Assembly: GCA_041738505.1 (NCBI GenBank)
Contig: JBGSPQ010000010.1
Span: 5,553-69,552 of the forward strand
DNA from: Candidatus Altimarinota bacterium
Lineage (GTDB): Bacteria; Patescibacteriota; Gracilibacteria; UBA1369
Length of the DNA: 64,000 bases
Reading direction: 5' to 3'
Below, in pieces: positions 4,490-25,612 of the stretch (positions are counted from its first letter, which is position 1; every line of letters begins with the position of its first letter). The notes beneath the pieces were generated by a model. That model saw nothing but the letters and a program-made list of their open reading frames with translations. It was not told where the DNA came from and searched no databases. The translations under genes and the position numbers were made by a program.

Positions 4490-5140
4490 ATGTTAATAGT
4501 TCAGTGTCTTCTGTTTATACTATTTATTAATCTACTAAATATGAAGAACTCAATTGATTTGACACAAAAGCAGGTGGAGTTCCCACAAAACACTGCAAAT
4601 GAAGGGGTAAATGCAAACAGTTGTGTCCAAAATAATATCAAAGGACAGCTGGTTAAGGTCTTATCGAAAATTACCAGTTGTGATGATGGAAATACAAGTA
4701 TTAAGGGAAGATACATCTATGCTACGGACACTCCAAACGATTCAAAAATCAAATCACCCCCTTGGAACGGGGCGGAATGTACGGATACACCGGAACTGAT
4801 TGACGGAGTTAGTGGTGTGGTTAATGAGAATGAAAAGCCTCAACGGTTGCCAAACATAACTCAGGACAGCAGTGGTATATTTTATTCACAATTAGACTAC
4901 GGTTGTATTTATAATTCGACAGACTGTAGTAACGGCGACGACGAAGGAAGTGCAGGCGAAGATGGGGAGGGCGGAATCGGAGGAACTGCAGGCGTCGGAG
5001 GAAGTGCCGGCGAAGGAGGTACAGGAGACGACGAAGGAAGTGCAGGCGAAGATGGGGAGGGGGGAATCGGAGGAAGTGCCGGCGTCGGAGGAAGTGCCGA
5101 CGAAGGTGGTACAGGCGGAATCGGAGGAAGCCTAGGCTAA
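4490..5140 (+). CDS. Hypothetical Cys-containing protein with C-terminal Gly/Asp/Glu-rich tandem repeats; possibly secreted
   Basis: 216-aa ORF. The N-terminus from ATG 4490 is hydrophobic (IVQCLLFILFINLL); an alternative ATG is at 4541. The C-terminus is GDDEGSAGEDGEGGIGG(T/S)AGVGGSA(G/D)EGGT repeated. Confidence 0.5.
   Translation: MLIVQCLLFILFINLLNMKNSIDLTQKQVEFPQNTANEGVNANSCVQNNIKGQLVKVLSKITSCDDGNTSIKGRYIYATDTPNDSKIKSPPWNGAECTDTPELIDGVSGVVNENEKPQRLPNITQDSSGIFYSQLDYGCIYNSTDCSNGDDEGSAGEDGEGGIGGTAGVGGSAGEGGTGDDEGSAGEDGEGGIGGSAGVGGSADEGGTGGIGGSLG
4934..5137 (+). repeat. 90-nt (30-codon) in-frame tandem repeat, about 2.3 copies
   Basis: Units start at 4934 and 5024 and are nearly identical; a partial third unit runs 5114-5137. 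Confidence 0.85.
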
Positions 5141-5246
5141 GGCGGCGTTCTGGCCGACAGGAGATCAAGAAGAAGGGAGGAGTAGATATTTTCATAATTT
5201 TTCAATTAAAAGGGGGGGTGAGTAACATCATCCCCCGATTCGGCCA

Positions 5247-5275
5247 TTGACAAAGAAGTTAAAAGATTATACAAT
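5247..5275 (+). promoter_or_regulatory. Sigma70-like promoter TTGACA-17-TACAAT
   Basis: TTGACA 5247-5252 and TACAAT 5270-5275, about 95 nt upstream of ATG 5369. Confidence 0.5.
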
Positions 5276-5368
5276 GTAATGTCACGATTGATATTCTCGC
5301 TACTCTAGCATAAATGTATCCGCAGGTTAGCCGCTCCGATCGAATCACTAAAAAATAAAAACAAACAA

Positions 5369-6307
5369 ATGTACAAATTCTGGAGAAACAATAAGAACGT
5401 CATATCGGTGGGATTGTCGCTGTTTGTGGTTTCAGTAACATCCCTGATGGTTCTTCTCAATAACGAAAACCTGTCGGCTGACATTAAAACCAACCTAATC
5501 AAAGAAACCGCAAATTCTGAGCAGACCCATGAAGAGGCAGTAGCATACGGGCCTTTTAATTTGGGGGAGGGAGCCGCTCTGCTGGTGGGTATGGACGGAC
5601 TAATAAACTTTGCCAATGAAAAATTCGGCGAGTCCACGGATTTTGATCCAGCGGATATGAAAGGCCAGCTGTTCTTTAATTACATCCATCCCGAAGATCT
5701 GGCGGGAGTTCTTTCCGCTTATGGAAAAGTACTTTCTTCCAAGGAACCGCAAATGCTGGTCGGCCCTTTCAGAATGAAAAACGCCGCCGGCGAGTACACC
5801 GTGCAGATGGCCGCGATGCAGCCGGTTGTGGAGGAGAACAAAATGCAAGGTGTCGCGGTAATGACACGCGCCATTTCGGCCGAATCCGTGCCGGTTGAAG
5901 AAATTGAAATTGAATATGCCGAGGAAGTTGATGTCTCGGATGAGGAACCCCCGCAAGAAACAGAGGAGACTCAATCCACACAGTATTTAATTGATGATTT
6001 GTCCGAGGCGGGATTTGCCGGATTTGAAGAAGAAGCCGCCGAAGAAGAAGAGGAAGTTTTGAGCGAAGCTGAGGTGGAAACGCAGGCGGAAGTGAAAACG
6101 AAAGTGGAAGAACCCGCGGTGGAAAAAAACGAAGAAAATATAAAAAAAGGGAACTCCGATTCTCAAAAAGACGAGGCCAAACCCAGGAAGAAAGACAAGC
6201 AGATTAGAAACGAATCGGATAACGACAAACGTCTGGTGGTGGACAATCTGGCAAATCTGATCAACAAAGTCTACCGCGACCCCGACGTATTGGCGTATCT
6301 GTTCTAA
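5369..6307 (+). CDS. Membrane-anchored PAS-domain protein with highly acidic C-terminal tail
   Basis: N-terminal TM segment (ISVGLSLFVVSVTSLMVLL). A PAS-like core (GMDGLINFANEKFGESTDFDPADMKGQLFFNYIHPEDL...FRMKNAAGEYTV) is followed by an E/D-rich low-complexity tail. Confidence 0.6.
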   Translation: MYKFWRNNKNVISVGLSLFVVSVTSLMVLLNNENLSADIKTNLIKETANSEQTHEEAVAYGPFNLGEGAALLVGMDGLINFANEKFGESTDFDPADMKGQLFFNYIHPEDLAGVLSAYGKVLSSKEPQMLVGPFRMKNAAGEYTVQMAAMQPVVEENKMQGVAVMTRAISAESVPVEEIEIEYAEEVDVSDEEPPQETEETQSTQYLIDDLSEAGFAGFEEEAAEEEEEVLSEAEVETQAEVKTKVEEPAVEKNEENIKKGNSDSQKDEAKPRKKDKQIRNESDNDKRLVVDNLANLINKVYRDPDVLAYLF

Positions 6308-14440: not shown

Positions 14441-15271
14441 TTAAAACGCGGGTGGCAAAACTTCTATCATGCGCTTCGCGCCGTTTTCAATAGGCACGGA
14501 GTAATCATGCAGGGCATTTGAAATTACATCCCACGTATAAACATAATTTTCTCCGTTTTTTGTGCCCACATCATGAGTGATGATTTTTCCTTCCTTATAG
14601 CCTTTAACCAGCACCACATGATACATCGGGCCGCCGTTTTTGAAATTGGGATTATAAAGTTGCTTCCCGGAAAAAGTCATAATTATGAAATGGCCGTCAT
14701 TGATAACTTTTTGTACGTCTTCAAATGATGGATTTTCATGAATAACGGTTTCCAGAAACAAATATTCCTCCAGAATTTCCGCCGTCTGATCCACACTTGT
14801 ATGTATATAATCACCAAATCTGTCTTTCTGCCATTCCACAAGCTTTAAAATCTCATCATTGAATTGTTCGCGCGACCAGTTGTGACTAAAATATTCATTG
14901 GCCACAAGAAGTACGGACGCCTCTTCGCACGCTTCCTGCCATGGTAAATCCCAGTTTCCAAAAGGAGCCTGGGCATAAAACACCGCTTTCAGATTAAGTT
15001 CGGCGGGAAATGATTGAACCTGTCCTGCGTCAATACCTTCCCCGTTCGTTGTTTCCCCGTTTTGATCCGATGTTTCGGCATCTACCGATAAATCCATATC
15101 ATTGGAATCCTCCCCGTCGGAAAATATCCCCCCCGTCCTAATCGTCGCGCTGTCCACTTCAATCGGCACGGGCTCTTTCTCGAATCTGACCGTTTTATAA
15201 TACAGATAACCTTCTCCGGCCATCACCAGTACCAAAAATCCCAAGATATAAATTTGAGTCATTTTATTCAT
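14441..15271 (-). CDS. Membrane-anchored C39-like (papain-fold) peptidase domain protein
   Basis: N-terminal TM segment. YAQAPFGNWDLPWQEACEEASVLL (candidate catalytic Cys) and YHVVLVKGY (candidate His) resemble the Peptidase_C39_2 family. Confidence 0.5.
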   Translation of the reverse strand: MNKMTQIYILGFLVLVMAGEGYLYYKTVRFEKEPVPIEVDSATIRTGGIFSDGEDSNDMDLSVDAETSDQNGETTNGEGIDAGQVQSFPAELNLKAVFYAQAPFGNWDLPWQEACEEASVLLVANEYFSHNWSREQFNDEILKLVEWQKDRFGDYIHTSVDQTAEILEEYLFLETVIHENPSFEDVQKVINDGHFIIMTFSGKQLYNPNFKNGGPMYHVVLVKGYKEGKIITHDVGTKNGENYVYTWDVISNALHDYSVPIENGAKRMIEVLPPAF

Positions 15272-15376
15272 GTTTCCATTATGTATTTACCTCTTCATTA
15301 TTGATATCTTATCTTGATATTGCAAGGAAAACAAAAGCTGATGGGTTTATTGAAAACATTACGAAACTATAAAATA

Positions 15377-15404
15377 TTGACAAAAAACAGCAGTAATGCA
15401 TAAT
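15377..15404 (+). promoter_or_regulatory. Sigma70-like promoter TTGACA-16-(TG)CATAAT
   Basis: TTGACA 15377-15382, TGCATAAT 15397-15404, and ATG at 15437. Confidence 0.5.
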
Positions 15405-15436
15405 AGCACCCCTAAAATATCCCATCAAAGCCAAAC

Positions 15437-16099
15437 ATGCGCAACCCATTAGAAACTTTACCCGAAGCCGGAAATGGTGACGAAAGTTTTGACGAAATCT
15501 GGGAAAAAGCCATAGATCGATGGGGTATAAATTCATCCAAAGCCGAAGATATAAAAAATAAGCTGGCGGGCGGAACCGCTGTTCCTTCAGTAAAAGAACC
15601 TCCGCGTCCCTCATCCCGCGTAGCCCCAAAGCCCGTGGATGAATCGTTAAAAGAAGATGACTGGATTTGCGAGCGCCCGACAATCCCCATGGATGAGCCT
15701 AAACCTGATTCCCTGGCGGTCACTCAAAGATCATCGGAGCTGATGCCAAAAACGCCCGATGACACCCCGGAAATTATCATCAACGAAACCCAAACCGACA
15801 TCAAGTCCGAACTTCTGTTTTTGCTGATTGAAGAGGCCGTTTTAAGAATCAGAAATTTTGAATTTGAATCGGTGACGGTGGAACCGGGTAAAAGCCATTT
15901 AACCAATGCTATCGCCAAAACTCTCGGTAATATTTGCGAAGCCGAAGATCTGCTTTTAATGATCGCCGTGGACGCGAACAAATTTACGATTTTAAAAAAA
16001 GGCTGGATTGATTATACTGGACGAGTTATGGATGAGAAGAAAGGATATGTCTTCCATTCCCTGCTGAAAACCTATCCCAACGCGGTTACAATCAAATAA
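15437..16099 (+). CDS. Hypothetical protein (220 aa)
   Basis: ORF with an ATG start downstream of the promoter. The N-terminal half is Pro/acidic-rich. No recognisable motif. Confidence 0.5.
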   Translation: MRNPLETLPEAGNGDESFDEIWEKAIDRWGINSSKAEDIKNKLAGGTAVPSVKEPPRPSSRVAPKPVDESLKEDDWICERPTIPMDEPKPDSLAVTQRSSELMPKTPDDTPEIIINETQTDIKSELLFLLIEEAVLRIRNFEFESVTVEPGKSHLTNAIAKTLGNICEAEDLLLMIAVDANKFTILKKGWIDYTGRVMDEKKGYVFHSLLKTYPNAVTIK

Positions 16100-16131
16100 C
16101 CGTTTCCCCAAGTATTTTATAACTGTTGAAT

Positions 16132-16614
16132 ATGACGCCGGATATCGCCCCGGGTGAAAAAGTAACCCCGGATGGGAATTTATATGCAAATTCGCACCAA
16201 ATTGATGAGCTGATTGGCAGGACTCCGAAAGTAGTCAGAAGGGCCGTTCTCGCCATCCTGGAAACACCTCCGGTAATCACCGAAAAGGAGCCGGATGATG
16301 AAATGGTGCTTCGCAATATGAAAATTCTGGCCGAGAATATCGGACCCAAACCCACCGACCTTACATTGTTTATACCATTAAACGGCAAACTCCCGGAACT
16401 GCTTAGGAAGAGCGGATGTGAATCGCTGGAAGCTCTTGTAGAAAAAATTCAGTCAATTGCCATCAAAGAGCGACTGGGTTTTCTGACCGGAGTAGATCAT
16501 GACGCCCGCCAACTGGTCGTGAATATTCACAAACAACCGGGTAAAGACTACTCCAGACCCATGTCAAAAGAGGACCATGATTTCATTTGTCTTTTTGACA
16601 CTGAAGTCTTTTAG
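16132..16614 (+). CDS. Hypothetical protein (~160 aa)
   Basis: The ORF 16126-16614 starts with TTG; the first ATG is 16132. It is co-oriented with and 30 nt from the preceding gene. Confidence 0.5.
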   Translation: MTPDIAPGEKVTPDGNLYANSHQIDELIGRTPKVVRRAVLAILETPPVITEKEPDDEMVLRNMKILAENIGPKPTDLTLFIPLNGKLPELLRKSGCESLEALVEKIQSIAIKERLGFLTGVDHDARQLVVNIHKQPGKDYSRPMSKEDHDFICLFDTEVF

Positions 16615-17702
16615 GGTTTGTCAGTCGGTGTTTCATTTAGTCCGCTTTTGGAGACGCCCTGCTGTTTTTTCATCATCAGGAAATACGCACCCGCCACAAC
16701 AACAATCACAATAAGCGCGATGCCAAAAGGATTGTGCAGTACCATGGAAACCAGTGATGTAACTGTTGTCAGAAGCAAAGCCGCCAGAAAAGTCACCGCC
16801 GTAACGGCCGTCTTGCCCAGTTTTGAAACAAAAGGCAGAGCCTCAAAAGCCACTGTCAGCGGTTTAAAAATCAGAAGAAGTCCCATCCACATAACAAAGA
16901 ACCCGATAATTCTCCAAACCCAGCCTTCGGTTTTATATTCCTCTTTCAGAACCGAAATTGCGTCTTCGTTGGTTCCCCAGAAAACGCGGTAAAGCCCTTT
17001 TTCGTTTTCACCGTGGTGGGCTTCCATAATATTACCGTCGAATCTTCCAAACACCGTGGATTTCTGCCCGGGATTCACAGCACTGTAACTGATTCTCACA
17101 TCTCCCACTTCCGGTTCCTGCAAAGTGCCGTAACCCCTAAATAGATAGTCATCGGCCACCTGCGAAAAATCATCTAAATAAACCATCTCCTCATTCAGAG
17201 ACACTTTATCGTAACCCGGCCATCTCACTTTATTGGGATCAACCTGGTAATCTCCCACAAATGCCTTATCCGCGAAAACCGTCAGATTCTTGATTTCCAT
17301 AGGATAATTTTCATGACCGCGTGCGTCGTTGAAATCTTCGCTGTCCGCGGGCTCGCTCACCCATGCGGTTTCATAGGTGTAATACTTAACATCATTATCA
17401 TCTGTCTCTACATCTTCCTCCCAGGCGTACATTTCCACATTCCTCTTTAAAGCCACATAATCACCCTCGGCAATATACTCATCGCCTATTCGACCTTCGG
17501 ATTTAAGTTCTCCTGTAACATAAACAAAATCATTCCCTCCGGCCGCAGTCGCATTCACGGCTTTATTAGCCACTATGCTGTAATCCGTCCGTCCCTCGGT
17601 GTTAAACAGCACCACAAAAGAAACCAAAAAAATCAAAATACCCACAACCATACCGCCGATGGAGCCAATAAGCTTATCGCCGAAACCTTGCGCTTGAGCC
17701 AT
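16611..17702 (-). CDS. Membrane protein with one N-terminal and about three C-terminal TM helices around a large external domain (possibly TMEM43/DUF1625-like)
   Basis: 363 aa. The topology is read from hydrophobic runs. VEMYAWEE resembles the motif I recall for DUF1625, but the family call is from memory. Confidence 0.45.
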   Translation of the reverse strand: MAQAQGFGDKLIGSIGGMVVGILIFLVSFVVLFNTEGRTDYSIVANKAVNATAAGGNDFVYVTGELKSEGRIGDEYIAEGDYVALKRNVEMYAWEEDVETDDNDVKYYTYETAWVSEPADSEDFNDARGHENYPMEIKNLTVFADKAFVGDYQVDPNKVRWPGYDKVSLNEEMVYLDDFSQVADDYLFRGYGTLQEPEVGDVRISYSAVNPGQKSTVFGRFDGNIMEAHHGENEKGLYRVFWGTNEDAISVLKEEYKTEGWVWRIIGFFVMWMGLLLIFKPLTVAFEALPFVSKLGKTAVTAVTFLAALLLTTVTSLVSMVLHNPFGIALIVIVVVAGAYFLMMKKQQGVSKSGLNETPTDKP

Positions 17703-17758
17703 AGTGAAAGATTATCAAATATTTACCAATCGATTATGCCACATCAATTAAGCATTTA

Positions 17759-18460
17759 TCAAATTCCGTTAACTTCACTTTTAAGAACAAGGTCGTTGCC
17801 TTCTTCCGTGACCATATATAAACAACCGCTCGGTTGAATGAATATTTGTGATTTGCCTCCGGTCGCCAGATAGGCCGCAATGGTGCCCGACCCACAAGCT
17901 GTTTCATTAATTATCGACTTCGTTTTTCTCACAAATACTGTGATATTCAATTTGTAATTATTATCCATGGAAATCAGCCCGACAGAGGGGAAACGCTCAA
18001 TATCTTTCCCGTATGTCCTTAGATAATTTTTTAAAGTTTCAGTCTGATCTACTTGATCCTTCGCATTTCTCACGAAGTGGGCAATACCATCCATCTTTAC
18101 AAGGGTGGAGCCGTCTCTTAACTTAACCGGCAAAAAATCATTTCTGATATTTATGGAAACCCAGTAAGCAAGTTCACATGGATAAACTCCGTTCAGGCAT
18201 TCCACATCTGTTTTACGTGAACCGGTCTCTCCATAATTCCAAAGTGCCAGACTTCGGATGGCATTAACACAAAGTTCGTTACCCATCATAGTCAGTTTAA
18301 TATCGCTTTCTTTTGATTTTTCAATAAAACCGACCTGCTCAACATCATCGGATAACTGGGATTTGCCAATCTTATGATATTCGGCAGGTTGAATAATATT
18401 CGCTCTATTATCTATCAATAAAGTTGGATTGCCCCCCGGAACAAAAATACTTTTTTTCAT
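17759..18460 (-). CDS. DapF-superfamily (DAP-epimerase fold) two-cysteine racemase/epimerase, CntK-like
   Basis: 233 aa with GGNPTLLI near the N-terminus. MGNELCVNA and ETACGSGT place one Cys in each half, as in PLP-independent racemases. EQVGFIE resembles what I recall of the histidine racemase CntK. Confidence 0.55.
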   Translation of the reverse strand: MKKSIFVPGGNPTLLIDNRANIIQPAEYHKIGKSQLSDDVEQVGFIEKSKESDIKLTMMGNELCVNAIRSLALWNYGETGSRKTDVECLNGVYPCELAYWVSINIRNDFLPVKLRDGSTLVKMDGIAHFVRNAKDQVDQTETLKNYLRTYGKDIERFPSVGLISMDNNYKLNITVFVRKTKSIINETACGSGTIAAYLATGGKSQIFIQPSGCLYMVTEEGNDLVLKSEVNGI

Positions 18461-18462
18461 TG

Positions 18463-19407
18463 TTAAAGTTGTTTAATGAATGATTGAAGTGTGTCAAAAC
18501 CGCTCTTGAGAGATGCAAAATCTTTTTCACCAAAACATTTGCGTCTTTCAATAATCGTATAGTCTTTGCTGTCGGAAAGAGCTGTGAGCAGATAGAGAAA
18601 ATCCTTAAACAATTCCGGACTCACCTTTTCCAGAAAAGTTTTCACGTCGGGTTCATCTATACCGCTTTCAATCACCGGTTCCCCAAAGCATTTGAAATAA
18701 GGGGGACGGTTGCCGATTTTTCCAAACAGCTGGATCCTGTCATAAGTTTTTTGAATGTCTCCACGGCTTGCACCGATGATTTTACGGACATTAAAGAAAA
18801 TCTCCTCTGCCGGTCCGCCCACCATCGCCAGCGCATCAAGATCAAAATCCGGAGGATTATCAATCAAAAATAAATTCTCATCATCCGTCACGGGTTCACG
18901 CATAAAAAGAGCGTGTTCCGCCATATATGCCAGAGGATTGCGAATTGTCTGCCCTTCCTTAATTCTCTTTTCCGCGAATGTTATAATTGCTCGATTATTT
19001 TCTTGGATGAGGGTATCAACAAGTTCCTGAACAAGTTGCCGGCGTTCCGCGGAATCTTCTCTTTCCCTGGAAATCAGGACGTCACCTTCGGTCTTGGCAT
19101 AGAAAGCCTTTATGAATTGACGGATATATTCCGAAACCAGCTGAACGTTATCCTCAATTATTGCCGGATCTTCACCCAACCTCATTTGCGCCCTATCGGC
19201 GAAGTAAAACTGGCCGCGCGTATTTTCGCGACTTTGCATCGCAGACAAAAGTGGCATCAAATAAGCCAGAATGCGTACGGGAACGCCCGGAGTGACATCC
19301 GCGCTCATCCCTGTGGAAAACAGGACCCTTTTTTTCGGATTCATACTTTTTAACAGTTTTTCACTGGTATTTTTTAGTAACGGGAATATGGGGGTATTTT
19401 TAGACAT
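18463..19407 (-). CDS. Hypothetical protein (314 aa), first gene of the operon with the racemase
   Basis: ATG start. Its stop lies 2 nt from the downstream gene's start codon. No confidently recognisable motif. Confidence 0.6.
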   Translation of the reverse strand: MSKNTPIFPLLKNTSEKLLKSMNPKKRVLFSTGMSADVTPGVPVRILAYLMPLLSAMQSRENTRGQFYFADRAQMRLGEDPAIIEDNVQLVSEYIRQFIKAFYAKTEGDVLISREREDSAERRQLVQELVDTLIQENNRAIITFAEKRIKEGQTIRNPLAYMAEHALFMREPVTDDENLFLIDNPPDFDLDALAMVGGPAEEIFFNVRKIIGASRGDIQKTYDRIQLFGKIGNRPPYFKCFGEPVIESGIDEPDVKTFLEKVSPELFKDFLYLLTALSDSKDYTIIERRKCFGEKDFASLKSGFDTLQSFIKQL

Positions 19408-19431
19408 GATGTGTAAAATAAAAAAATATAT

Positions 19432-19460
19432 AAAAAAAGACCGACATTTCTTTGTCGGCC
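19432..19460 (-). terminator. Intrinsic terminator in the 5' leader (attenuator) of the 19407 operon
   Basis: The minus strand reads GGCCGACA-AAGAAA-TGTCGGTC followed by TTTTTTT. It ends about 25 nt before ATG 19407. Confidence 0.6.
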
Positions 19461-19492
19461 TGCTACTGATATGGAATTACTTCAATAAAAAC

Positions 19493-19564
19493 TTACATGC
19501 AGCGATGCACCGACAAATGATGGTCGGTGTGATGATGCTGGCTGGATGTAAGTAATTGATACAT
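19493..19564 (-). CDS. Candidate 23-codon His-rich leader peptide MYQLLTSSQHHHTDHHLSVHRCM
   Basis: The ATG at 19564 is about 25 nt downstream of a consensus -10. Six of the 23 codons are His. The codons overlap the 5' arm of the first leader hairpin. Confidence 0.45.
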   Translation of the reverse strand: MYQLLTSSQHHHTDHHLSVHRCM

Positions 19565-19589
19565 TAAAATAGATTGAAATCCTGAGTGT

Positions 19590-19617
19590 ATTATACCCAA
19601 CAAAAAACTTATGTCAA
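19590..19617 (-). promoter_or_regulatory. Consensus sigma70 promoter TTGACA-16-TATAAT
   Basis: The minus strand has TTGACA (19617-19612) and TATAAT (19595-19590), between tRNA-Phe and the leader. Confidence 0.65.
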
Positions 19618-19626
19618 ATTTTAATC

Positions 19627-19701
19627 TGGTGCCGAGGGGCGGAATTGAACCACCGACGCAGGGATTTTCAATCCCTCGCTCTACCACTGAGCTACCCCGG
19701 C
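19627..19701 (-). tRNA. tRNA-Phe (anticodon GAA), CCA encoded
   Basis: The reverse complement GCCGGGGTAGCTCAGTGGTAGAGCGAGGGATTGAAAATCCCTGCGTCGGTGGTTCAATTCCGCCCCTCGGCACCA folds as a cloverleaf. The anticodon loop is TTGAAAA. Confidence 0.92.
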
Positions 19702-19799
19702 AAACTATTTTCACGGTCTGAAGACAGCACAAAAAAACTTACCTTAATCCGCCTCAAATTTCAATTGAATAATATAATAAAAAAAATCATACAATGGTC

Positions 19800-19828
19800 T
19801 TGACTTACTAAAAACTATTTGCTACAAT
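19800..19828 (+). promoter_or_regulatory. Near-consensus promoter TTGACT-17-(TGc)TACAAT facing the ORF-free region
   Basis: TTGACT 19800-19805 and TACAAT 19823-19828, preceded by TGc (extended -10). Confidence 0.6.
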
Positions 19829-19889
19829 ACTATGATGATTCAAAAAAGGAACGAATTATCCCGACCATTGAAAACCAGACCGTACCGGC

Positions 19890-19982
19890 AAGATAGGGAG
19901 AAAGCTGCCAGAAACCATTGATATTGCGGACCTTTAAAAAGTCTTCGTATCCATATTTTCTGTCAGCTTCCTCCCTAAGCTT
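19890..19982 (+). repeat. Hairpin module A: AAGATAGGGAGAAAGCTG - 56 nt - CAGCTTCCTCCCTAAGCTT
   Basis: The 5' box (19890-19907) is complementary to the 3' box (19964-19982) apart from small internal loops. Confidence 0.7.
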
Positions 19983-20296
19983 TCGGGATTGGAATAATAA
20001 TTGATATCCCCCAGATATTAATTACTACTTAAATCTTGTTTCTGACGGGCTTGTATATCAGGAATAAAAGTTTAAGGCAAAGACGAGTGTTTCTTTTTAA
20101 GTGATTTCATTTTATCGCGGCCTGTGCTTCGATATTTTAAATCTCTTAAATCAAAACGCTTCTGAAAGACTGTTCACTTTAACTTCGGTTATTGCGAATA
20201 TAATTCTACAATAAATTGTAATCTTGCATTTTGTTGGTCTTTCCTTCCAGTCCCCACTTAGGGTTTTGTACTTTGATTTTTAGGTCCTCACAGCGG

Positions 20297-20377
20297 AAGA
20301 TAGGGAGAAAGCTGTTAATGGCATATATGTTGACCCACCTCTTCATATAGTTCATTGGCAGCTTCCTCTCTAAGCTT
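20297..20377 (+). repeat. Hairpin module B: AAGATAGGGAGAAAGCTG - 44 nt - CAGCTTCCTCTCTAAGCTT
   Basis: The 5' box is identical to module A. The 3' box differs at one position (C to T, which still pairs with G). The loop is unrelated to loop A. Confidence 0.7.
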
Positions 20378-20688
20378 CTTGGCTTGGTGAGTATTCCGTG
20401 TTCAAGAGTCCCCCAGGTTCTTGACGCGCCTTTCTTTTTCGCTTAGTGGGTTCGCAGGCTAAGCTGTAGAGAGTTTGGGATTAACTTCGTTTGTCGTCTG
20501 TGATGTTTTGTTTATCGGCTTCGGTCGATTTTCAAACGTTACAAATCGGTAAGCGAGAGAGATTCTGTCCTGTATCAGTGATGATTCAGGCTAAGAGACT
20601 GTTCCGGAGAAATAATCTTTTTTTGGGACGTTGACCGTTTACTTTTCTTTCCCTGGAGTTTGGGGAGGACTTGAAAAATTATAAGGAA

Positions 20689-20775
20689 CCCGGTGAGAGT
20701 GCTGTCTTCTGTCTGAGTTTGGTCACTAGTTTTGACCCTCAGTCATCAAGACAGCTCTCTCATCGGGTTTTTTTT
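20689..20775 (+). terminator. Long intrinsic terminator (20-nt arms, nested inner hairpin, T8)
   Basis: CCCGGTGAGAGTGCTGTCTT (20689-20708) pairs with AAGACAGCTCTCTCATCGGG (20748-20767) with one G-U and one mismatch. An inner GGTCA/TGACC hairpin is nested inside. TTTTTTTT runs 20768-20775. Confidence 0.6.
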
Positions 20776-20789
20776 GAACCCCGTAACCG

Positions 20790-21308
20790 TTATTTGCCGC
20801 AAACATCCCAGAGACCTTTCGTTTCATCTTTGGCCACTTCCTGCAGTGTTTCAAAGGAGTCGTGTTTGGAGTAAGCGTGGTCTTCATCAAAATAAACTCT
20901 CGCCAGACCCTCTTTAATCAATTCTTCATTAAGCATTCTGCCGTCCGCCAGATAAACATACTTTAGATCCCTCCCGTGGATATCTTTTTCCCCCGCGTCC
21001 GGATCGCTTTCCAGAGTGACTTCGCGGTTATTCTTAAAAAACAGGTTGGCTGCCAGATCTTTAGATTCCCCGCCAAAGCACTGGCGAACTTTTTCGCCGT
21101 CCAGGAAAGTGGTTTCCGGAGCGTCCGCGCCAATCAGCTGAACCTTGGAAAGCTTCCCGTTTTGCATCACGATGTAGGAATCGGGATCGATCATGTGCAC
21201 AATCTTGGCTTTATTCTGAAAGAAAAACGGCCAAAGCACATACTGATAAAGCAGGAATATCACCAGCGCCAGTATCGCGAGACTGATTAAGGGACGGAGA
21301 ATTCTCAT
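20790..21308 (-). CDS. Membrane-anchored staphylococcal-nuclease-like (thermonuclease/SNase) protein
   Basis: N-terminal TM segment. VQLIGADAPE...GGESKDLAANL...HGRDLKYVYLADGRMLNEELIKEGLARVY matches the SNase active-site blocks. Confidence 0.75.
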   Translation of the reverse strand: MRILRPLISLAILALVIFLLYQYVLWPFFFQNKAKIVHMIDPDSYIVMQNGKLSKVQLIGADAPETTFLDGEKVRQCFGGESKDLAANLFFKNNREVTLESDPDAGEKDIHGRDLKYVYLADGRMLNEELIKEGLARVYFDEDHAYSKHDSFETLQEVAKDETKGLWDVCGK

Positions 21309-21350
21309 AATAAATAATTAACAGGAAACGGATGCTAGCACAGTTAACTT

Positions 21351-21368
21351 TCGACTTCCAGAAGTCGA
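21351..21368. promoter_or_regulatory. Perfect 8+8 palindrome TCGACTTC-CA-GAAGTCGA abutting the -35 box (candidate operator)
   Basis: It lies 3 nt upstream of TTGGAA (21372-21377)-17-TATAAT (21395-21400), which precedes the CDF transporter gene. Confidence 0.35.
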
Positions 21369-21371
21369 GTG

Positions 21372-21400
21372 TTGGAATTATGCTTAAAATGTTGTATAAT
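21372..21400 (+). promoter_or_regulatory. Promoter TTGGAA-17-TATAAT
   Basis: A consensus -10 lies 20 nt upstream of ATG 21420. Confidence 0.5.
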
Positions 21401-21419
21401 ATATGGATAACAATCAATC

Positions 21420-22643
21420 ATGATATCGCGCAAAAAAGAGTTGGAAAATACGAAAATGGGGGCAAAGGTGGCTTTGCAGGGCCTGGTTAAAGTCGCGATA
21501 CTTGCAATGGCCAAGCTGTTCATTGGTATTTTTACGGGGATGATTGTTTTAATTGCGGACGCGCTTTCCAGTTTTGCCGACCTGCTGGCGCTTTTTGCGG
21601 CGTTTCTGGGTCTGAAGATCAGCACGAAAAGCGCGGACAAGGGTTTCAGTTACGGTTATTACAAAGTGGAGACATTCGCGTCACTGTTTGTATCCCTGAT
21701 TATCGTTTACCTTGGAGCCGAAATATTTATTAAAAGTCTGGAGCGTTTCAGCGAGACGGAAGTCGCCCATTATCAGATTCTTGGTGTGATAATGGTGATT
21801 ATCACTTTTTATGAATCATATCATCTGGCGCACAAGCTCAAACACACCGGCAAAGAAATCAATTCGCTGGCACTGCTTAACTGCGGTAAGGATAAAATTG
21901 TGGATATGTACATTCAGGTAATCGTACTTGTTGGTATCGGAGCCAACTATTTTCATATTCCGTATCTGGAGGGGGCGATTGGTATGGGTATTTCGCTTTA
22001 CACACTCAAAGAGGGTGTGCTGGCGGCGAAAGAGTCGCTGTATTTTCTGCTGGATTATTATGATGATGACAAACTTATCAAAAAAATACGCAAAACAATT
22101 CTGGAAAATTCCACGGTGGTGAAAGGGGTGCAGGATATCAAATTAAGGAGAGCCGGAACTGTGATTTTTGGCGAGGCTTTATTGGAACTTAATCCTTACA
22201 GCGAGACCGGAGACATCCGCAACGAGCTTACAAAACTCAAAGTCATGGTAATTGATTTGGAAGAGTATCTGAAAGATTTTTCACTGATGATAACCATACC
22301 CAAACCGGCAAAAGTGCGGTTGGCGTTTCCGGTGGTCAAAGACGACGGTCTGGAATCGGTGCTGGCCAAAACCATGGAAAAAACCTCCGCTTATGTGTTT
22401 GTTGATATTGACGGTAAGAGACTGAAGAAATTCTCATCGGAAAAATTCCGTTTCCGGAAGGATGATTTTTCCTCCATGACCGATTTTCTGCTGAAACATA
22501 AAGTGCACATTGTCATTAACAACGACATGCATAGCCTGCTTTATTATAACGTGCGCCATCTAAATCACATTCCCGTTTATCCCAACTTCGGCAACATTGA
22601 AACCGTAAAGAACGCGGTTAAACTTCTGAAGATAGATTTGTAA
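21420..22643 (+). CDS. Cation diffusion facilitator (CDF) transporter fused to an extra C-terminal ~110-aa domain (possibly NifX/NifB-like fold)
   Basis: TM core IADALSSFADL...FSYGYYKVETF...(CDF signature) plus a cytoplasmic CTD. An additional segment follows: KVRLAFPVVKDDGLESVLAKTMEKTSAYVFVDIDG...HIVINNDMHS. Confidence 0.7.
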   Translation: MISRKKELENTKMGAKVALQGLVKVAILAMAKLFIGIFTGMIVLIADALSSFADLLALFAAFLGLKISTKSADKGFSYGYYKVETFASLFVSLIIVYLGAEIFIKSLERFSETEVAHYQILGVIMVIITFYESYHLAHKLKHTGKEINSLALLNCGKDKIVDMYIQVIVLVGIGANYFHIPYLEGAIGMGISLYTLKEGVLAAKESLYFLLDYYDDDKLIKKIRKTILENSTVVKGVQDIKLRRAGTVIFGEALLELNPYSETGDIRNELTKLKVMVIDLEEYLKDFSLMITIPKPAKVRLAFPVVKDDGLESVLAKTMEKTSAYVFVDIDGKRLKKFSSEKFRFRKDDFSSMTDFLLKHKVHIVINNDMHSLLYYNVRHLNHIPVYPNFGNIETVKNAVKLLKIDL

Positions 22644-23064
22644 GGGCGGTTTTTAAAACCAGCGGGTGATCAAATCCCAGAGGCGGGGGATTATTGGCCG
22701 GAAACCATTCCGTTTCCGCGGCGTCGTCCCCGGCTTTTATTTTCACAAGGGCGCTGTCCACAAACCCAACGTAGGCAACAGAAACAATCGTGCCGCGCGG
22801 GTCCCGCCCCGGCACCGAAAACACACCCAGCAAATCCAGTTTCACTCCTTTAAGCGCCGTTTCCTCCTCCAACTCCCGCGCGGCGCACTCCTCGCACGAT
22901 TCGCCCCACTCCATAAAACCGCCCGGCAACGCCCAATTGCCTTTAAAAGGTTCATGTCCCCTTTTTACCAGCAACACCCGTAAATCGGCCCCCTCCCCCG
23001 AAAAAATCACCAAATCACAGGCCACAGTCGGTCTTTTACCCTCTCTGCCAAAAATATCCGTCAT
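22618..23064 (-). CDS. NUDIX hydrolase
   Basis: Nudix box GGFMEWGESCEECAARELEEETAL. Confidence 0.85.
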   Translation of the reverse strand: MTDIFGREGKRPTVACDLVIFSGEGADLRVLLVKRGHEPFKGNWALPGGFMEWGESCEECAARELEEETALKGVKLDLLGVFSVPGRDPRGTIVSVAYVGFVDSALVKIKAGDDAAETEWFPANNPPPLGFDHPLVLKTALTNLSSEV

Positions 23065-23101
23065 AAAAAAGTCCGTAAATACGAGCCGATTATAGCAGAA
23101 A

Positions 23102-25612
23102 CTATTTTTGTTGTGGAACGGGAAGCTTAACTATCCTAATCGTCGCCTTCTTTTTGATGTTGGGCAGACGTGTGGTGATAGTTTCCTCTTTCAGCTTTTC
23201 ATCCGGTTTTCGTTTGGATGGAATAAGCGCAATTTTCAGCACGTCATCAAGGGTGCTGGCATATTTTAGAGTGACACCGCGTAAAATCACCGCGGGAATT
23301 TCCGTAACATCCTTTTTGTTTTTCTCGGGCAGAATTATTGTTTTGATATTCGCTCTCTTGGCCGCCAGAATTTTTTCCTTTAGTCCGCCGATAGGCAGAA
23401 TACGGCCTGTTAAAGTCACTTCCCCGGTCATCGCCACATCCCGCCTTACTTTCTGGTTGGTCAGAAGTGAAATCAGCGCCGTGCAAATTGTTATACCGGC
23501 CGATGGTCCGTCTTTGGGAACCGCGCCCTCCGGAACATGAATGTGAATATCGGAAGTTTTGAAAATATCATCACTGATATTGAATTTGTGTGAATTGCTT
23601 CTGATGTAGCTCAAAGCAGCTCTCGCCGATTCCTGCATCACATCGCCCAGATTGCCCGTCATAATCAGATTCTTGTCGCCCGGCATCCTTGTTGCTTCAA
23701 TAAATAAAATATCCCCGCCGTAAGGCGTCCAGGCCAGACCTGTCGTAACTCCAACCCTGTCCTCCTCCTGGGCCTTTTCAAACTCATATTTATCCACTCC
23801 CAGATACTGCTCCACCTTTGCGCTGTCAATTTTTGGAGTTTTGACCAGTGTCTTTTCTATCAGATCCTTGGCCACTTTTCTGCAAATGGAGGCGATCTGC
23901 CTCTCCAGTTCACGCAGACCGGCTTCATTGGTGTAGCTTCGAACCAGTTTTAAAATCGCATCATCCGTAAAAATGAGCTTTCTGCTTTCCAGTCCGTTGG
24001 CGATTTTTTGTTTGGGGATAAGGTATTTTTTGGCAATCTGCAGTTTTTCCTCCTCGGTGTAGCCGGGTAGTTCAATCACCTCCATTCTGTCCAACAGCGC
24101 CGGCGGAATCGGATCAAGAAAATTGGCGGTGGTAATAAAAAAGACCTTGGAAAGGTCAAACGGCACGTCCAGATAATGGTCGGTAAAAGCATGATTCTGC
24201 TCCGGATCCAGCGCTTCCATCAGCGCCGCCGCCGGGTCCCCCTGAAAGTCCTTTCCCACCTTGTCTATTTCATCAAGCATAAACACCGGATCGTTATAAC
24301 CGGCTCTTTTTAGTGATTGAATGATTCTTCCGGGCATCGCTCCAACGTAGGTTCTCCTGTGTCCGCGAATATCTGCTTCGTCACGTATGCCTCCCAGTGA
24401 GGTGTGAACAAAAGACCTTCCCAGAGCCCTTGCAATGGACTGCCCGAGAGAGGTTTTTCCAACTCCGGGGGGGCCGACAAAGCATAAAATCGTCGCGCCT
24501 CTTTTGTTATTCAGCTGGCAGACCGCCAAAAATTCCAATATGCGCTCTTTCACTTTTTCCAGTCCGTAATGGTCTTCATCCAGAATTTTGCGCGCCTTTT
24601 TAACATCCGCTTTTACCGGACAGCTTTTTTCCCATGGCATGTCGCACAGCCATTCAATATAGGTGCGCGCCACCGTGTATTCGGGTGAAATCGGAATGAT
24701 TTTTTTCAAACGGTCCAATTCTTTTCTGGCGATTTTTTCCACGCTATCCGGCATTTCCGCCTTATTGATTCTCTGTTCCAAATCGCGAATATCCTCCTTA
24801 TCCGTCATTCCCCCCATACCCAAAACGTCCTCCTCATCTTCCCCAAGCTCCTTTTTGATAGCCTTCAACTCCTGCCGGAGCAGATAATTGCGTTCACTTT
24901 TGTTAAGTTCCTGGGAAATATCGGTATGAATTTTTTTGCGGATTTTTGAGAGTTGGATTTCCTTGTTCAGATAATCCAGAATCAGTTTTATTCTCTTTGC
25001 GGAATCGGTCATACTCAACAGTTCCTGCTTTTTGATAATTTCCAGCGTCAATAATGAGCAGGCCAAATCAAGAATGTCATCAAAATTATGTATTTTACTT
25101 AGTCCCGTGATTACTTCCGGAGGAAGATTTTTGCCCTCCAACGCCAGACGTGCGATCAAATCCTTGATTTCCTGGGCGCCCGCTTCCAAATCGACATTCG
25201 CATCTTCGCTCTTTTCAATGGGTTTGATGTTTGCCTGCAAAAATGGTTTTTCCTGAGTGAACTGTCTCACCTTGAAACGGCTGATTCCCTCCACCAGAAC
25301 CATCGCGTCGTTGCCGGTGCCGCTCTTAATAACCTGTAATACGGAAACACTGGTACCGACATCAAAAAGATTTTCAACCGGCGGAACCGGTTTTGACGAG
25401 CTTTTTTGCGTTATCAGCCCAATAAGTTCACCGTCCTGCGAAGCCTTGTTAATGGCATCAATCAGTTTTTCGTTCTTTACATATACGGTGATAATCATGG
25501 ACGGAAAAACGACCAGATCACGCAGAGGAATGATCAGAATATTTAAAGGCAGTTTATAATCTTTTTCCGCAGGGACATCCTGTTCGGTATTCTGTGCGAA
25601 TTCGTCTTCCAT
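23102..25612 (-). CDS. lon: ATP-dependent Lon protease (LonA type)
   Basis: N-terminal LON domain, Walker A GPPGVGKTSLGQSIA, and protease domain PKDGPSAGITICTALISLL with catalytic Ser. Confidence 0.95.
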   Translation of the reverse strand: MEDEFAQNTEQDVPAEKDYKLPLNILIIPLRDLVVFPSMIITVYVKNEKLIDAINKASQDGELIGLITQKSSSKPVPPVENLFDVGTSVSVLQVIKSGTGNDAMVLVEGISRFKVRQFTQEKPFLQANIKPIEKSEDANVDLEAGAQEIKDLIARLALEGKNLPPEVITGLSKIHNFDDILDLACSLLTLEIIKKQELLSMTDSAKRIKLILDYLNKEIQLSKIRKKIHTDISQELNKSERNYLLRQELKAIKKELGEDEEDVLGMGGMTDKEDIRDLEQRINKAEMPDSVEKIARKELDRLKKIIPISPEYTVARTYIEWLCDMPWEKSCPVKADVKKARKILDEDHYGLEKVKERILEFLAVCQLNNKRGATILCFVGPPGVGKTSLGQSIARALGRSFVHTSLGGIRDEADIRGHRRTYVGAMPGRIIQSLKRAGYNDPVFMLDEIDKVGKDFQGDPAAALMEALDPEQNHAFTDHYLDVPFDLSKVFFITTANFLDPIPPALLDRMEVIELPGYTEEEKLQIAKKYLIPKQKIANGLESRKLIFTDDAILKLVRSYTNEAGLRELERQIASICRKVAKDLIEKTLVKTPKIDSAKVEQYLGVDKYEFEKAQEEDRVGVTTGLAWTPYGGDILFIEATRMPGDKNLIMTGNLGDVMQESARAALSYIRSNSHKFNISDDIFKTSDIHIHVPEGAVPKDGPSAGITICTALISLLTNQKVRRDVAMTGEVTLTGRILPIGGLKEKILAAKRANIKTIILPEKNKKDVTEIPAVILRGVTLKYASTLDDVLKIALIPSKRKPDEKLKEETITTRLPNIKKKATIRIVKLPVPQQK

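Follow-up and report, generated by a model that had tools for sequence, protein, structure and literature searches.

What controls a two-gene operon in a bacterium of the candidate phyla radiation (CPR) when a short, histidine-rich open reading frame (ORF) and a set of competing hairpins lie directly in front of it? This question arises at positions 19432 to 19617 of a 64,000-nucleotide stretch of a Candidatus Altimarinota genome (contig JBGSPQ010000010.1), which as a whole is called the window here; positions given without a locus number are those of the window, and the element, its operon, and the tRNA-Phe gene in front of it lie on the minus strand. The operon behind the element encodes a 314-aa protein with a predicted aminoacyl-tRNA synthetase (aaRS)-like fold and a 233-aa putative racemase. 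We conclude, with a probability of about 0.8, that the element is a His-tRNA-sensing leader-peptide (ribosome-mediated) transcription attenuator. This reading is supported because of comparisons across lineages, and not by folding alone. The parts of the switch, their alternative pairings, the conservation and covariation of those pairings, and the association of the operon with histidine were all observed in silico.

The leader begins with a sigma-70-type promoter at 19590 to 19617 (TTGACA at 19617-19612, a 16-nt spacer, and TATAAT at 19595-19590) that matches the consensus at 12 of 12 positions and is the sole such match in the 10 kb scanned (15000-25000). The leader transcript would start at about 19583, some 7 nt past TATAAT. 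An AU-rich stretch of 25 nt separates the promoter from the ATG at 19564, which opens an ORF of 23 codons plus stop (19493 to 19564; MYQLLTSSQHHHTDHHLSVHRCM, with TAA at 19495-19493). Six of its codons specify His: HHH at 19537-19529, HH at 19522-19517, and a single H at 19507-19505. Codons 10 to 12 (CAT CAT CAC, 19529 to 19537) are the proposed stall site, and codons 15 and 16 (19517 to 19522) form the second His pair. Two of the 450 short ATG-initiated ORFs in the whole window (10 to 40 codons, six frames) contain HHH, and two have at least five His codons; on its own, then, the leader ORF is unusual, not decisive. Its placement between a perfect promoter and terminator, taken together with the comparative data, is well beyond chance. 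The leader ORF lacks a Shine-Dalgarno (SD) sequence. This is no objection, because SD-like motifs (AGGA, GGAG, or GAGG, 5 to 20 nt 5' of the start) precede just 2 of 50 long ORFs in the window. Start regions there are A/T-rich, and the source organism appears, from its sequence, to initiate translation largely without SD pairing.

Four segments of the leader can pair in alternative combinations. Region 1 (CACCGAC, 19523 to 19529), which the last codon of the proposed stall site overlaps, pairs over 7 bp with region 2 (TTTGTCGGTG, 19508 to 19517) in the minimum free energy (MFE) fold, forming an anti-antiterminator. Region 2 can pair instead over 8 to 9 bp with region 3 to form an antiterminator; region 3 (19451 to 19461) spans the 5' arm of the terminator, AGGCCGACA, and the start of the loop, with GCCGACAAA at 19451-19459. 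Region 4 (TGTCGGTC, 19439 to 19446) is the terminator 3' arm, and a T7 tract (19432 to 19438) provides the U-run of the intrinsic terminator. This terminator, a 9-bp GC-rich stem (19461-19438) with its T run, ranked first among 16 terminator-like sites. The T7 tract ends 24 nt before the ATG of the first gene at 19407, and no promoter-like site was found in that gap. An outer helix of 13 bp, also in the MFE fold, encloses the 1:2 pairing; its 5' strand is ACTTACATCCAGC (19541 to 19553), and its 3' strand, GCTGCATGTAAGT (19491 to 19503), includes the stop codon. A preliminary description of this DNA had proposed the promoter, the ORF with six His codons, the four segments with their T7 tract and alternative pairings, and the outer helix around the stop codon. 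All of them are present at the positions it gave, except that the His codons it had assigned to two clusters in fact form a triplet, a pair, and an isolated codon.

The leader folds far more stably than expected for its composition. The 161 nt from 19585 to 19425 reach -40.7 kcal/mol, compared with -24.0 +/- 3.4 for shuffled sequences (z = -4.9; 0 of 200 as good). The duplex between region 2 and the terminator 5' arm has an energy of -17.8 kcal/mol, compared with -9.4 +/- 2.4 when shuffled (0 of 300 as good).

Ribosome-masked folding was simulated on transcripts cut just before region 4, which represents the moment of decision during co-transcriptional folding. These truncated folds, along with forced-pair energies, were used instead of plain full-length masked MFE folds, which kept the terminator in every state. 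With no ribosome on the leader of the window, the 1:2 pairing and the outer helix formed (-27.2 kcal/mol), and none of the 9 bases of the terminator 5' arm was paired. When the ribosomal A site was placed on His codon 10, 11, or 12, the 2:3 antiterminator formed (-19.4 kcal/mol) and 7 of the 9 arm bases were paired; a ribosome at the stop codon left the arm mostly free (3 of 9 paired). Four related loci (L014, L018, L022, and L035) likewise switched to the antiterminator upon stalling and freed the arm at the stop codon, and stalling also gave the antiterminator in L011, L015, and L021. The preliminary description had proposed that stalling at the first His cluster frees region 2, which the truncated folds bear out, and that full translation masks region 2; at the stop codon, however, the ribosome masks only the 3' edge of region 2. 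Termination is better explained by the re-formed 1:2 pairing and outer helix.

The comparison that carries our conclusion draws on the sequences preceding the operon in 16 independent lineages. Related loci (given here by numbers such as L011) were collected with a six-sequence alignment of the 314-aa family. The leaders cannot be aligned with one another, and the units compared were whole pairing arms. Ten of the 16 lineages have a His cluster in an ORF that ends just before the terminator. Six of them have a strict HHH between -250 and -40 of the operon, where 0.26 would be expected (P~1e-7), and four further lineages have HHQHH, HQHGEH, HHYH, or HH. When runs of all 20 amino acids were compared upstream of the operon, His was the only one enriched.

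The His clusters occur in two settings. Free-standing mini-ORFs are found in the window, L011, L015, and L021, and possibly in L012 (MKKILCNTIHHYHSLR). The closest genome, L011 (Candidatus Peribacteria), shares 40% identity in the 314-aa protein and has the leader MKIYNFLTTTQHQHGEHISPDVFVYCLK between a TTGAGA-17-TATAAT promoter and a terminator. The leaders of the window and L011 share the pattern L-T-[ST]-[ST]-Q-H-x-H-x-[DE]-H-[LI]-S, and the region 1 codons for TD in the window read GE in L011, in step with a change in region 2. The mini-ORFs of L015 (MLSDRRSKTSDHHHSLHIVGVFSRVIV) and L021 (MFAQRNVALAVHHHPSPRRGGVVFS) both contain HHH and start 6 to 7 nt past their -10 boxes; they look leaderless.

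In six further lineages, HH or HHH lies within the last 9 to 17 codons of the ORF upstream of the operon. A TrpR-family gene stands directly upstream in 13 loci, and several of these genes carry the His cluster in a C-terminal extension. They belong to the YerC/YecD family (TIGR02531, cut-off 42.2 bits; scores of 66.8, 80.1, and 54.7), and their closest solved structure is 3G1C (E 2.6e-17). That structure is HisR of Eubacterium eligens; HisR/YerC proteins are DNA-binding repressors that bind their operator with histidine as corepressor (PMC9413887). The C-terminal tails lie outside the TIGR02531 core. In these genes the His cluster precedes the stop codon by 9 to 17 codons and is followed by a GC-rich terminator-like hairpin, the 5' arm of which pairs with the last codons of the ORF. 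Up to their stop codons, the tails of the upstream ORFs read GHHQHHTGVGCGGSSGH in L001 (~2210-2260), NIHHHNPTKLGKGLSLTRN in L014 (~547-600), KLHHHSSDLGGRGLR in L018 (~547-588), RLHHH(H)RS...RRELS in L022, L023, and L027 (L022 ~1633-1674), and SHHPAKNMAG in L035 (~2906-2935). From these sequences it looks as though an attenuator is embedded in the tail of a repressor gene in sister lineages.

The spacing between the His codons and the switch is kept as well. The distance from the first His codon to the start of region 2 is 16 to 21 nt in the window, L011, L014, L015, L021, and L035, which would place region 2 just outside the footprint of a stalled ribosome. None of 300 shuffles matched the 2:3 pairing of the window, L011, L014, L015, or L021, and 1 of 300 did so in L035. 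The arms themselves are TTTGTCGG/CCGACAAA in the window (also given as UUUGUCGG/CCGACAAA), TTTCGCCGG/CCGGCGAAA in L011 (also given as UUUCGCCGG/CCGGCGAAA), and GGCGGG/CCCGCC in L035; those of L014, L015, L021, and L022 each differ again, and GGGAGUGUUUUCUC/GAGAAUGCUCCC is another of the pairs. Because the arm sequences differ from lineage to lineage yet still pair, they covary at the level of the helix, with whole arms as the units. The sample consists of about 16 lineages in which the nearest orthologue has 40% protein identity, and covariation was accordingly judged per helix, not per base pair. L018 and L022 were resolved by hand and by simulation instead of with the automatic terminator finder.

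We postulate that the element works as follows. Transcription would begin about 7 nt past TATAAT, and translation of the leader ORF would proceed before RNA polymerase has left the leader. When charged His-tRNA is plentiful, the ribosome would reach the stop codon and leave; regions 1 and 2 would then pair, stabilized by the 13-bp outer helix, and region 3 would stay free to pair with region 4 once that is made, so that the hairpin and U7 would stop the polymerase 24 nt short of the first gene. Under a shortage of His-tRNA, the ribosome would stall with its A site on His codon 10, 11, or 12. Its footprint would hide region 1 together with the 5' half of the outer helix and end just ahead of region 2, which could then capture region 3 (by UUUGUCGGU:GCCGACAAA and a further short helix) while region 4 has yet to be transcribed. 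With the terminator blocked, the polymerase would enter the aaRS-like and racemase genes. In the repressor-tail form, the last 9 to 17 repressor codons would double as the leader peptide, and a ribosome reaching the stop codon would break the antiterminator. We infer that the leader is translated, that transcription and translation are coupled, and that the antiterminator is trapped kinetically; what the switch does for the cell is inferred as well.

Several observations weigh against this attenuator. In the full-length leader with a ribosome on the His codons, the terminator is still the MFE structure (-23.8 kcal/mol, compared with -21.6 when 2:3 is forced), and at full-length equilibrium it is favored over the antiterminator by 2 to 4 kcal/mol. 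Control would thus have to be kinetic, as is accepted for the trp attenuator, and antitermination by kinetic trapping is plausible. A ribosome stalled at His codons 15, 16, or 20 would cover region 2 and favor termination, and the effective sensor is the first His cluster (codons 10 to 12). In L011, L015, and L021, a ribosome at the stop codon left the terminator arm unfreed in our simple model. Translation of the leader would have to start with no SD sequence and from a codon that sits in the base of a long hairpin once the whole leader has folded. On the comparative side, L011 is the only moderately close orthologue, and its leader has just three non-adjacent His codons; the His clusters of L001 and L012 come with no convincing 2:3 pairing; and no His cluster was found in 6 of the 16 lineages (the L002 group, L009, L010, the L013 group, L020, and L029). 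An Rfam cmscan of 18000-21000 at E <= 10 returned only tRNA and noise, with no match to His_leader RF00514, T-boxes, or riboswitches, and the leader matches no Rfam family. To our knowledge, no study has addressed the coupling of transcription and translation in CPR bacteria.

The promoter, the terminator, and the very stable fold would equally suit an independent gene of about 150 nt for a trans-acting small RNA (sRNA), in which the His-rich ORF would be incidental; terminated attenuator RNAs reportedly act in trans elsewhere, as rnTrpL of Sinorhizobium meliloti is said to do. The primary sequence varies between lineages, however; what they keep is the His codons and the spacing from these to region 2. 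In six lineages the same module of His codons and switch is part of the 3' end of a protein-coding gene, an arrangement that makes no sense for a free sRNA, and there is the missing Rfam match. We consider an sRNA alone very unlikely as an explanation, although the two readings are compatible and not mutually exclusive.

Another idea is that the mini-ORF encodes a His-rich micropeptide with a function of its own, such as metal binding, the HHH tails of the HisR-like proteins being functional protein and the hairpins ordinary terminators. His clusters bind Ni and Zn, the window has a cation-efflux gene 2 kb from the element, and the tails do belong to a real protein in several lineages. Nevertheless, most lineages share no sequence outside His (NIHHHNPTKLGKGLSLTRN, KLHHHSSDLGGRGLR, RLHHHRSIQLRRELS, and SHHPAKNMAG), the pattern common to the window and L011 being confined to these two. 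The codons past the His cluster are constrained to pair with the terminator arm, the tails fall outside the family core, and the cluster shifts between mini-ORF and repressor tail while its distance to region 2 is unchanged. We give little credence to this possibility.

A switch controlled by a protein or ligand (a riboswitch, a T-box-like element, or a HisR-type protein), with no ribosome stalling, deserves mention because alternative hairpins alone leave the sensor unspecified. HisR-family genes adjoin the operon in many lineages, and tRNA genes lie upstream of it in the window, L002, and L009. Such a control is nonetheless improbable to a similar degree: T-boxes and riboswitches went unmatched in the Rfam scan, no unpaired sequence resembling a ligand pocket is conserved across lineages, and HisR/YerC binds DNA (PMC9413887) and was not found as a gene in the 64-kb window. 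Besides the helices, the sole conserved feature is the in-frame His-codon cluster. Least probable of all is a chance ORF, with a hairpin and T7 that merely terminate transcripts from tRNA-Phe or the leader promoter and an operon that has its own unregulated start; the tRNA-Phe gene does end 9 nt before the -35 box with no terminator of its own, and HHH does turn up in 2 of 450 short ORFs, but the gap before ATG 19407 holds no promoter-like site, the same leader and terminator occur with no tRNA upstream in L011, L015, L021, L014, L018, L022, and L035, the HHH enrichment has P~1e-7, and the 2:3 complementarity exceeds all shuffles. None of these rivals accounts for the recurrence, across unrelated sequences, of in-frame His clusters at a constant distance from an antiterminator arm, in several lineages within a protein-coding tail.

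The operon placed under the attenuator consists of two tightly packed genes, at 18463 to 19407 and 17759 to 18460, and the pair is kept in essentially all related loci with enough sequence (L001-L029). The preliminary description had called the first product, of 314 aa, unknown. It indeed has no Pfam or NCBIfam match and no PDB sequence match, even with the family profile, but its fold can be assigned. The AlphaFold2 (AF2) model has a mean confidence (pLDDT) of 93, and its top 50 Foldseek matches are almost all catalytic domains of TyrRS and TrpRS, along with one designed esterase (E 1e-6 to 3e-4; TM 0.36-0.59). From this model, the protein is a predicted paralog of the class Ic aaRS fold. No anticodon-binding domain is present, and neither HIGH nor KMSKS is among the conserved columns of a 25-sequence family alignment, from which the absence of the motifs was judged. 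The invariant residues are R45, Y49, Y68, Y161, H165, E201, R208, G232, Y237, and D269. Word-indexed homologue searches with the protein and with the family profile found almost nothing, and an exhaustive HMMER search found 71 cluster representatives. The named genomes belong to Candidatus Peribacteria, Magasanikbacteria, and Parcubacteria, a taxonomy of homologues that supports a CPR origin of the window, and on this sampling of sequences the family is, as far as can be judged, CPR restricted. A cyclodipeptide synthase (CDPS) was considered as an identity for the 314-aa protein; there was no Pfam CDPS match and no CDPS in the top 50 fold matches, and the candidate was set aside.

The second product, of 233 aa, is assigned to PF26317 (CntK_N), a family of two-Cys, cofactor-independent racemases. 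Its best solved relatives are structures of the histidine racemase of Fusobacterium nucleatum (9CR6/9CR1, E 3e-8), and both of its catalytic Cys residues align to C67 and C209 of that enzyme, the numbering of which is published (PMC11602996). Its NCBIfam scores are 59.1 bits for the HisR racemase (cut-off 400), 51.8 for CntK (cut-off 300), and 23 for DapF, all below the cut-offs. The likeness to histidine racemases that had been suggested in the preliminary description thus stands: the product is, by sequence, closest to them and has a predicted racemase role.

Both operon proteins are poor in His, with 1 in 314 and 2 in 233 residues, or 3 of 547 compared with a background of 2.1% (P = 0.003); in roughly half of the aaRS-like family, the invariant H165 is the only His left. 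Such depletion is expected for proteins made under histidine shortage.

The neighborhoods of the pair in other lineages supply a further link, and here too the earlier proposal of a histidine connection was borne out, by hisS, hisBHAF-IE, tRNA-His, HisR/YerC, or a HisRS paralog as neighbors. In L002-L007, the pair directly follows hisB-hisH-hisA-hisF-hisIE, a tRNA-His(GTG) gene with its own terminator occupies the gap between hisIE and the pair (L002 3708-3784), and hisS lies two genes downstream; no His leader was found in this lineage. The L013 group has a full-length hisS directly upstream and an M20 peptidase gene downstream (L013 4492-5865 and 7732-8778). The operon of L035 includes a 317-aa paralog of the HisRS core that lacks the anticodon domain (4527-5480), and an EamA transporter is a further neighbor there. 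From these gene contexts, the aaRS-like/racemase module looks like part of a histidine regulon, and a possible role of the operon is to turn D-His into L-His or to increase the supply of usable histidine in some other step.

Other features of these neighborhoods were noted. A Peptidase_M15 gene (VanX / D-Ala-D-Ala dipeptidase-like) adjoins the CntK-like gene in L008 (1531-2223) and L010 (594-1292), replacing the aaRS-like gene in the latter; these neighbors hint at D-amino-acid or dipeptide chemistry. In L030, a TyrRS/TrpRS-family (tRNA-synt_1b) gene at 404-1591 and a gene for a 454-aa protein lie beside a distant CntK-like gene. Distant CntK-like proteins have other neighborhoods, with a DAO oxidase, a gene of the TyrRS/TrpRS family, or neither, and these contexts did not count as evidence. 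Candidate HisR operators are a perfect 7-6-7 palindrome, TCAACATgttaatATGTTGA, that overlaps the -35 box of the leader promoter in L015 (4136-4155) and TTAACATGTTAA upstream of the hisR-like gene in L001 (~1899-1910); no motif resembling these was seen at the leader promoter of the window.

Upstream of that promoter, the window has a tRNA-Phe(GAA) gene at 19627 to 19701 (ARAGORN; Rfam tRNA, 67.5 bits), which is given for context. An upstream tRNA was considered as part of the mechanism and rejected as a general feature, as most loci have none. Besides the window with its tRNA-Phe, such a gene precedes the pair in L002, where it is tRNA-His, and in L009, where the 3' end of a tRNA gene (1-24; ...GGCTCCACCA) lies 310 nt upstream. 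At 199-216 of the same locus, GTG TGG TGG TGG TAT TAG may be an M-W-W-W-Y mini-ORF; the repeat GTGGTGGTGG reads VVV or GGG in other frames, and the mini-ORF could be a Trp-type leader or chance. Beyond tRNA-Phe, about 1 kb of the minus strand (19730-20790) has no ORF of at least 60 aa in a genome that is otherwise tightly packed. This region contains two copies of a hairpin element of about 100 nt (~20385-20285 and ~19990-19885) with a conserved basal stem (AAGCTTAGrGAGGAAGCTG ... CAGCTTTCTCCCTATCTT) and an apical part that varies and still pairs. The 19-mer of the element occurs at those two places only (0 expected), the copies fold with -31.2 kcal/mol (z = -2.4) and -43.8 kcal/mol (z = -4.0), and no Rfam match was found for them.

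We tentatively extend the attenuator reading to a wider proposal, the chances of which we place close to even but short of it. It may be that a histidine-starvation module exists across the CPR/Patescibacteria, consisting of a TyrRS/TrpRS-fold enzyme with no HIGH or KMSKS motif and a histidine racemase, in many cases with hisS, a HisRS paralog, or M15/M20 peptidases alongside. This module would be controlled by two interchangeable forms of His-codon attenuation, the free-standing leader peptide and the 3' tail of a hisR (YerC-family) gene. If this is true, the fusion of repressor and attenuator in one ORF is a new, compact architectural variant of attenuation, and the aaRS-like family, which could act on D/L-histidine or His-tRNA, gains its first functional handle.

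Leader-peptide attenuation needs tight transcription-translation coupling and has been described mainly in Proteobacteria, Firmicutes, and Actinobacteria; in the literature that was searched, no report joined it with the CPR/Patescibacteria. A conserved His attenuator argues that minimal, SD-poor CPR bacteria still use coupled, ribosome-sensed regulation. The attenuator also labels a CPR-restricted operon as induced by His-tRNA shortage, which, along with the HisR, hisS, his-operon, and tRNA-His neighborhoods, suggests a function in histidine salvage or activation, possibly from D-His.

Compared with known systems, the element most closely resembles the enterobacterial hisL (RF00514) and the trp, phe, leu, thr, and ilv leaders. 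It shares with them a short ORF in which codons for the amino acid being sensed stand in tandem, 1:2, 2:3, and 3:4 hairpins with an intrinsic terminator just before the first gene, and an antiterminator that is at most about as stable as the terminator, hence a kinetic decision. There is no sequence or covariance-model likeness to RF00514, and the leader is of the same mechanism class and a different RNA family. It has 3+2+1 His codons, whereas hisL has seven in a row. Unlike leaders of the hisL/trp type, it has an extra 13-bp outer helix around 1:2 and no SD sequence and belongs to a CPR-type bacterium. Its targets are a class Ic aaRS-like protein and a histidine-racemase-like enzyme, in contrast to the his biosynthesis genes controlled by hisL.

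The enzymes of the operon differ from their known relatives as well. The 314-aa model is like TyrRS and TrpRS in the fold of the catalytic domain (TM about 0.5), whereas the protein has no sequence match to them, no HIGH/KMSKS-like motif in its conserved columns, and no anticodon-binding domain. The 233-aa protein shares PF26317 and both catalytic Cys residues with CntK of Staphylococcus aureus and HisR/FN1732 of F. nucleatum and scores higher with these than with DapF. Its scores are, however, far under the equivalog cut-offs, it is shorter (233 compared with about 270 aa), and it has no cntL or cntM neighbors.

Ashniev et al. (2022) predicted His-leader attenuators in Firmicutes that lack HisR, namely, the Bacillus cereus group, Peptostreptococcaceae, and Erysipelotrichales (PMC9413887). 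Those leaders are similar to the ones described here in having 3 to 5 His codons followed by attenuator, antiterminator, and terminator hairpins, and also in the interplay between HisR and attenuation; the window and L011 have a free-standing leader and no adjacent HisR gene. The Firmicutes leaders control his biosynthesis and transport operons and occur instead of HisR, unlike in several CPR lineages, where a HisR-family gene and the His switch coexist, with the His codons inside the 3' tail of the HisR ORF. As in the HisR/YerC regulon, a YerC/YecD-family gene heads the operon in 13 related loci, while the C-terminal HH(H) extensions of those loci are not in the described family core. The mechanism itself is already known, and the novelty lies in the phylum, the target operon, and the predicted repressor-tail variant.

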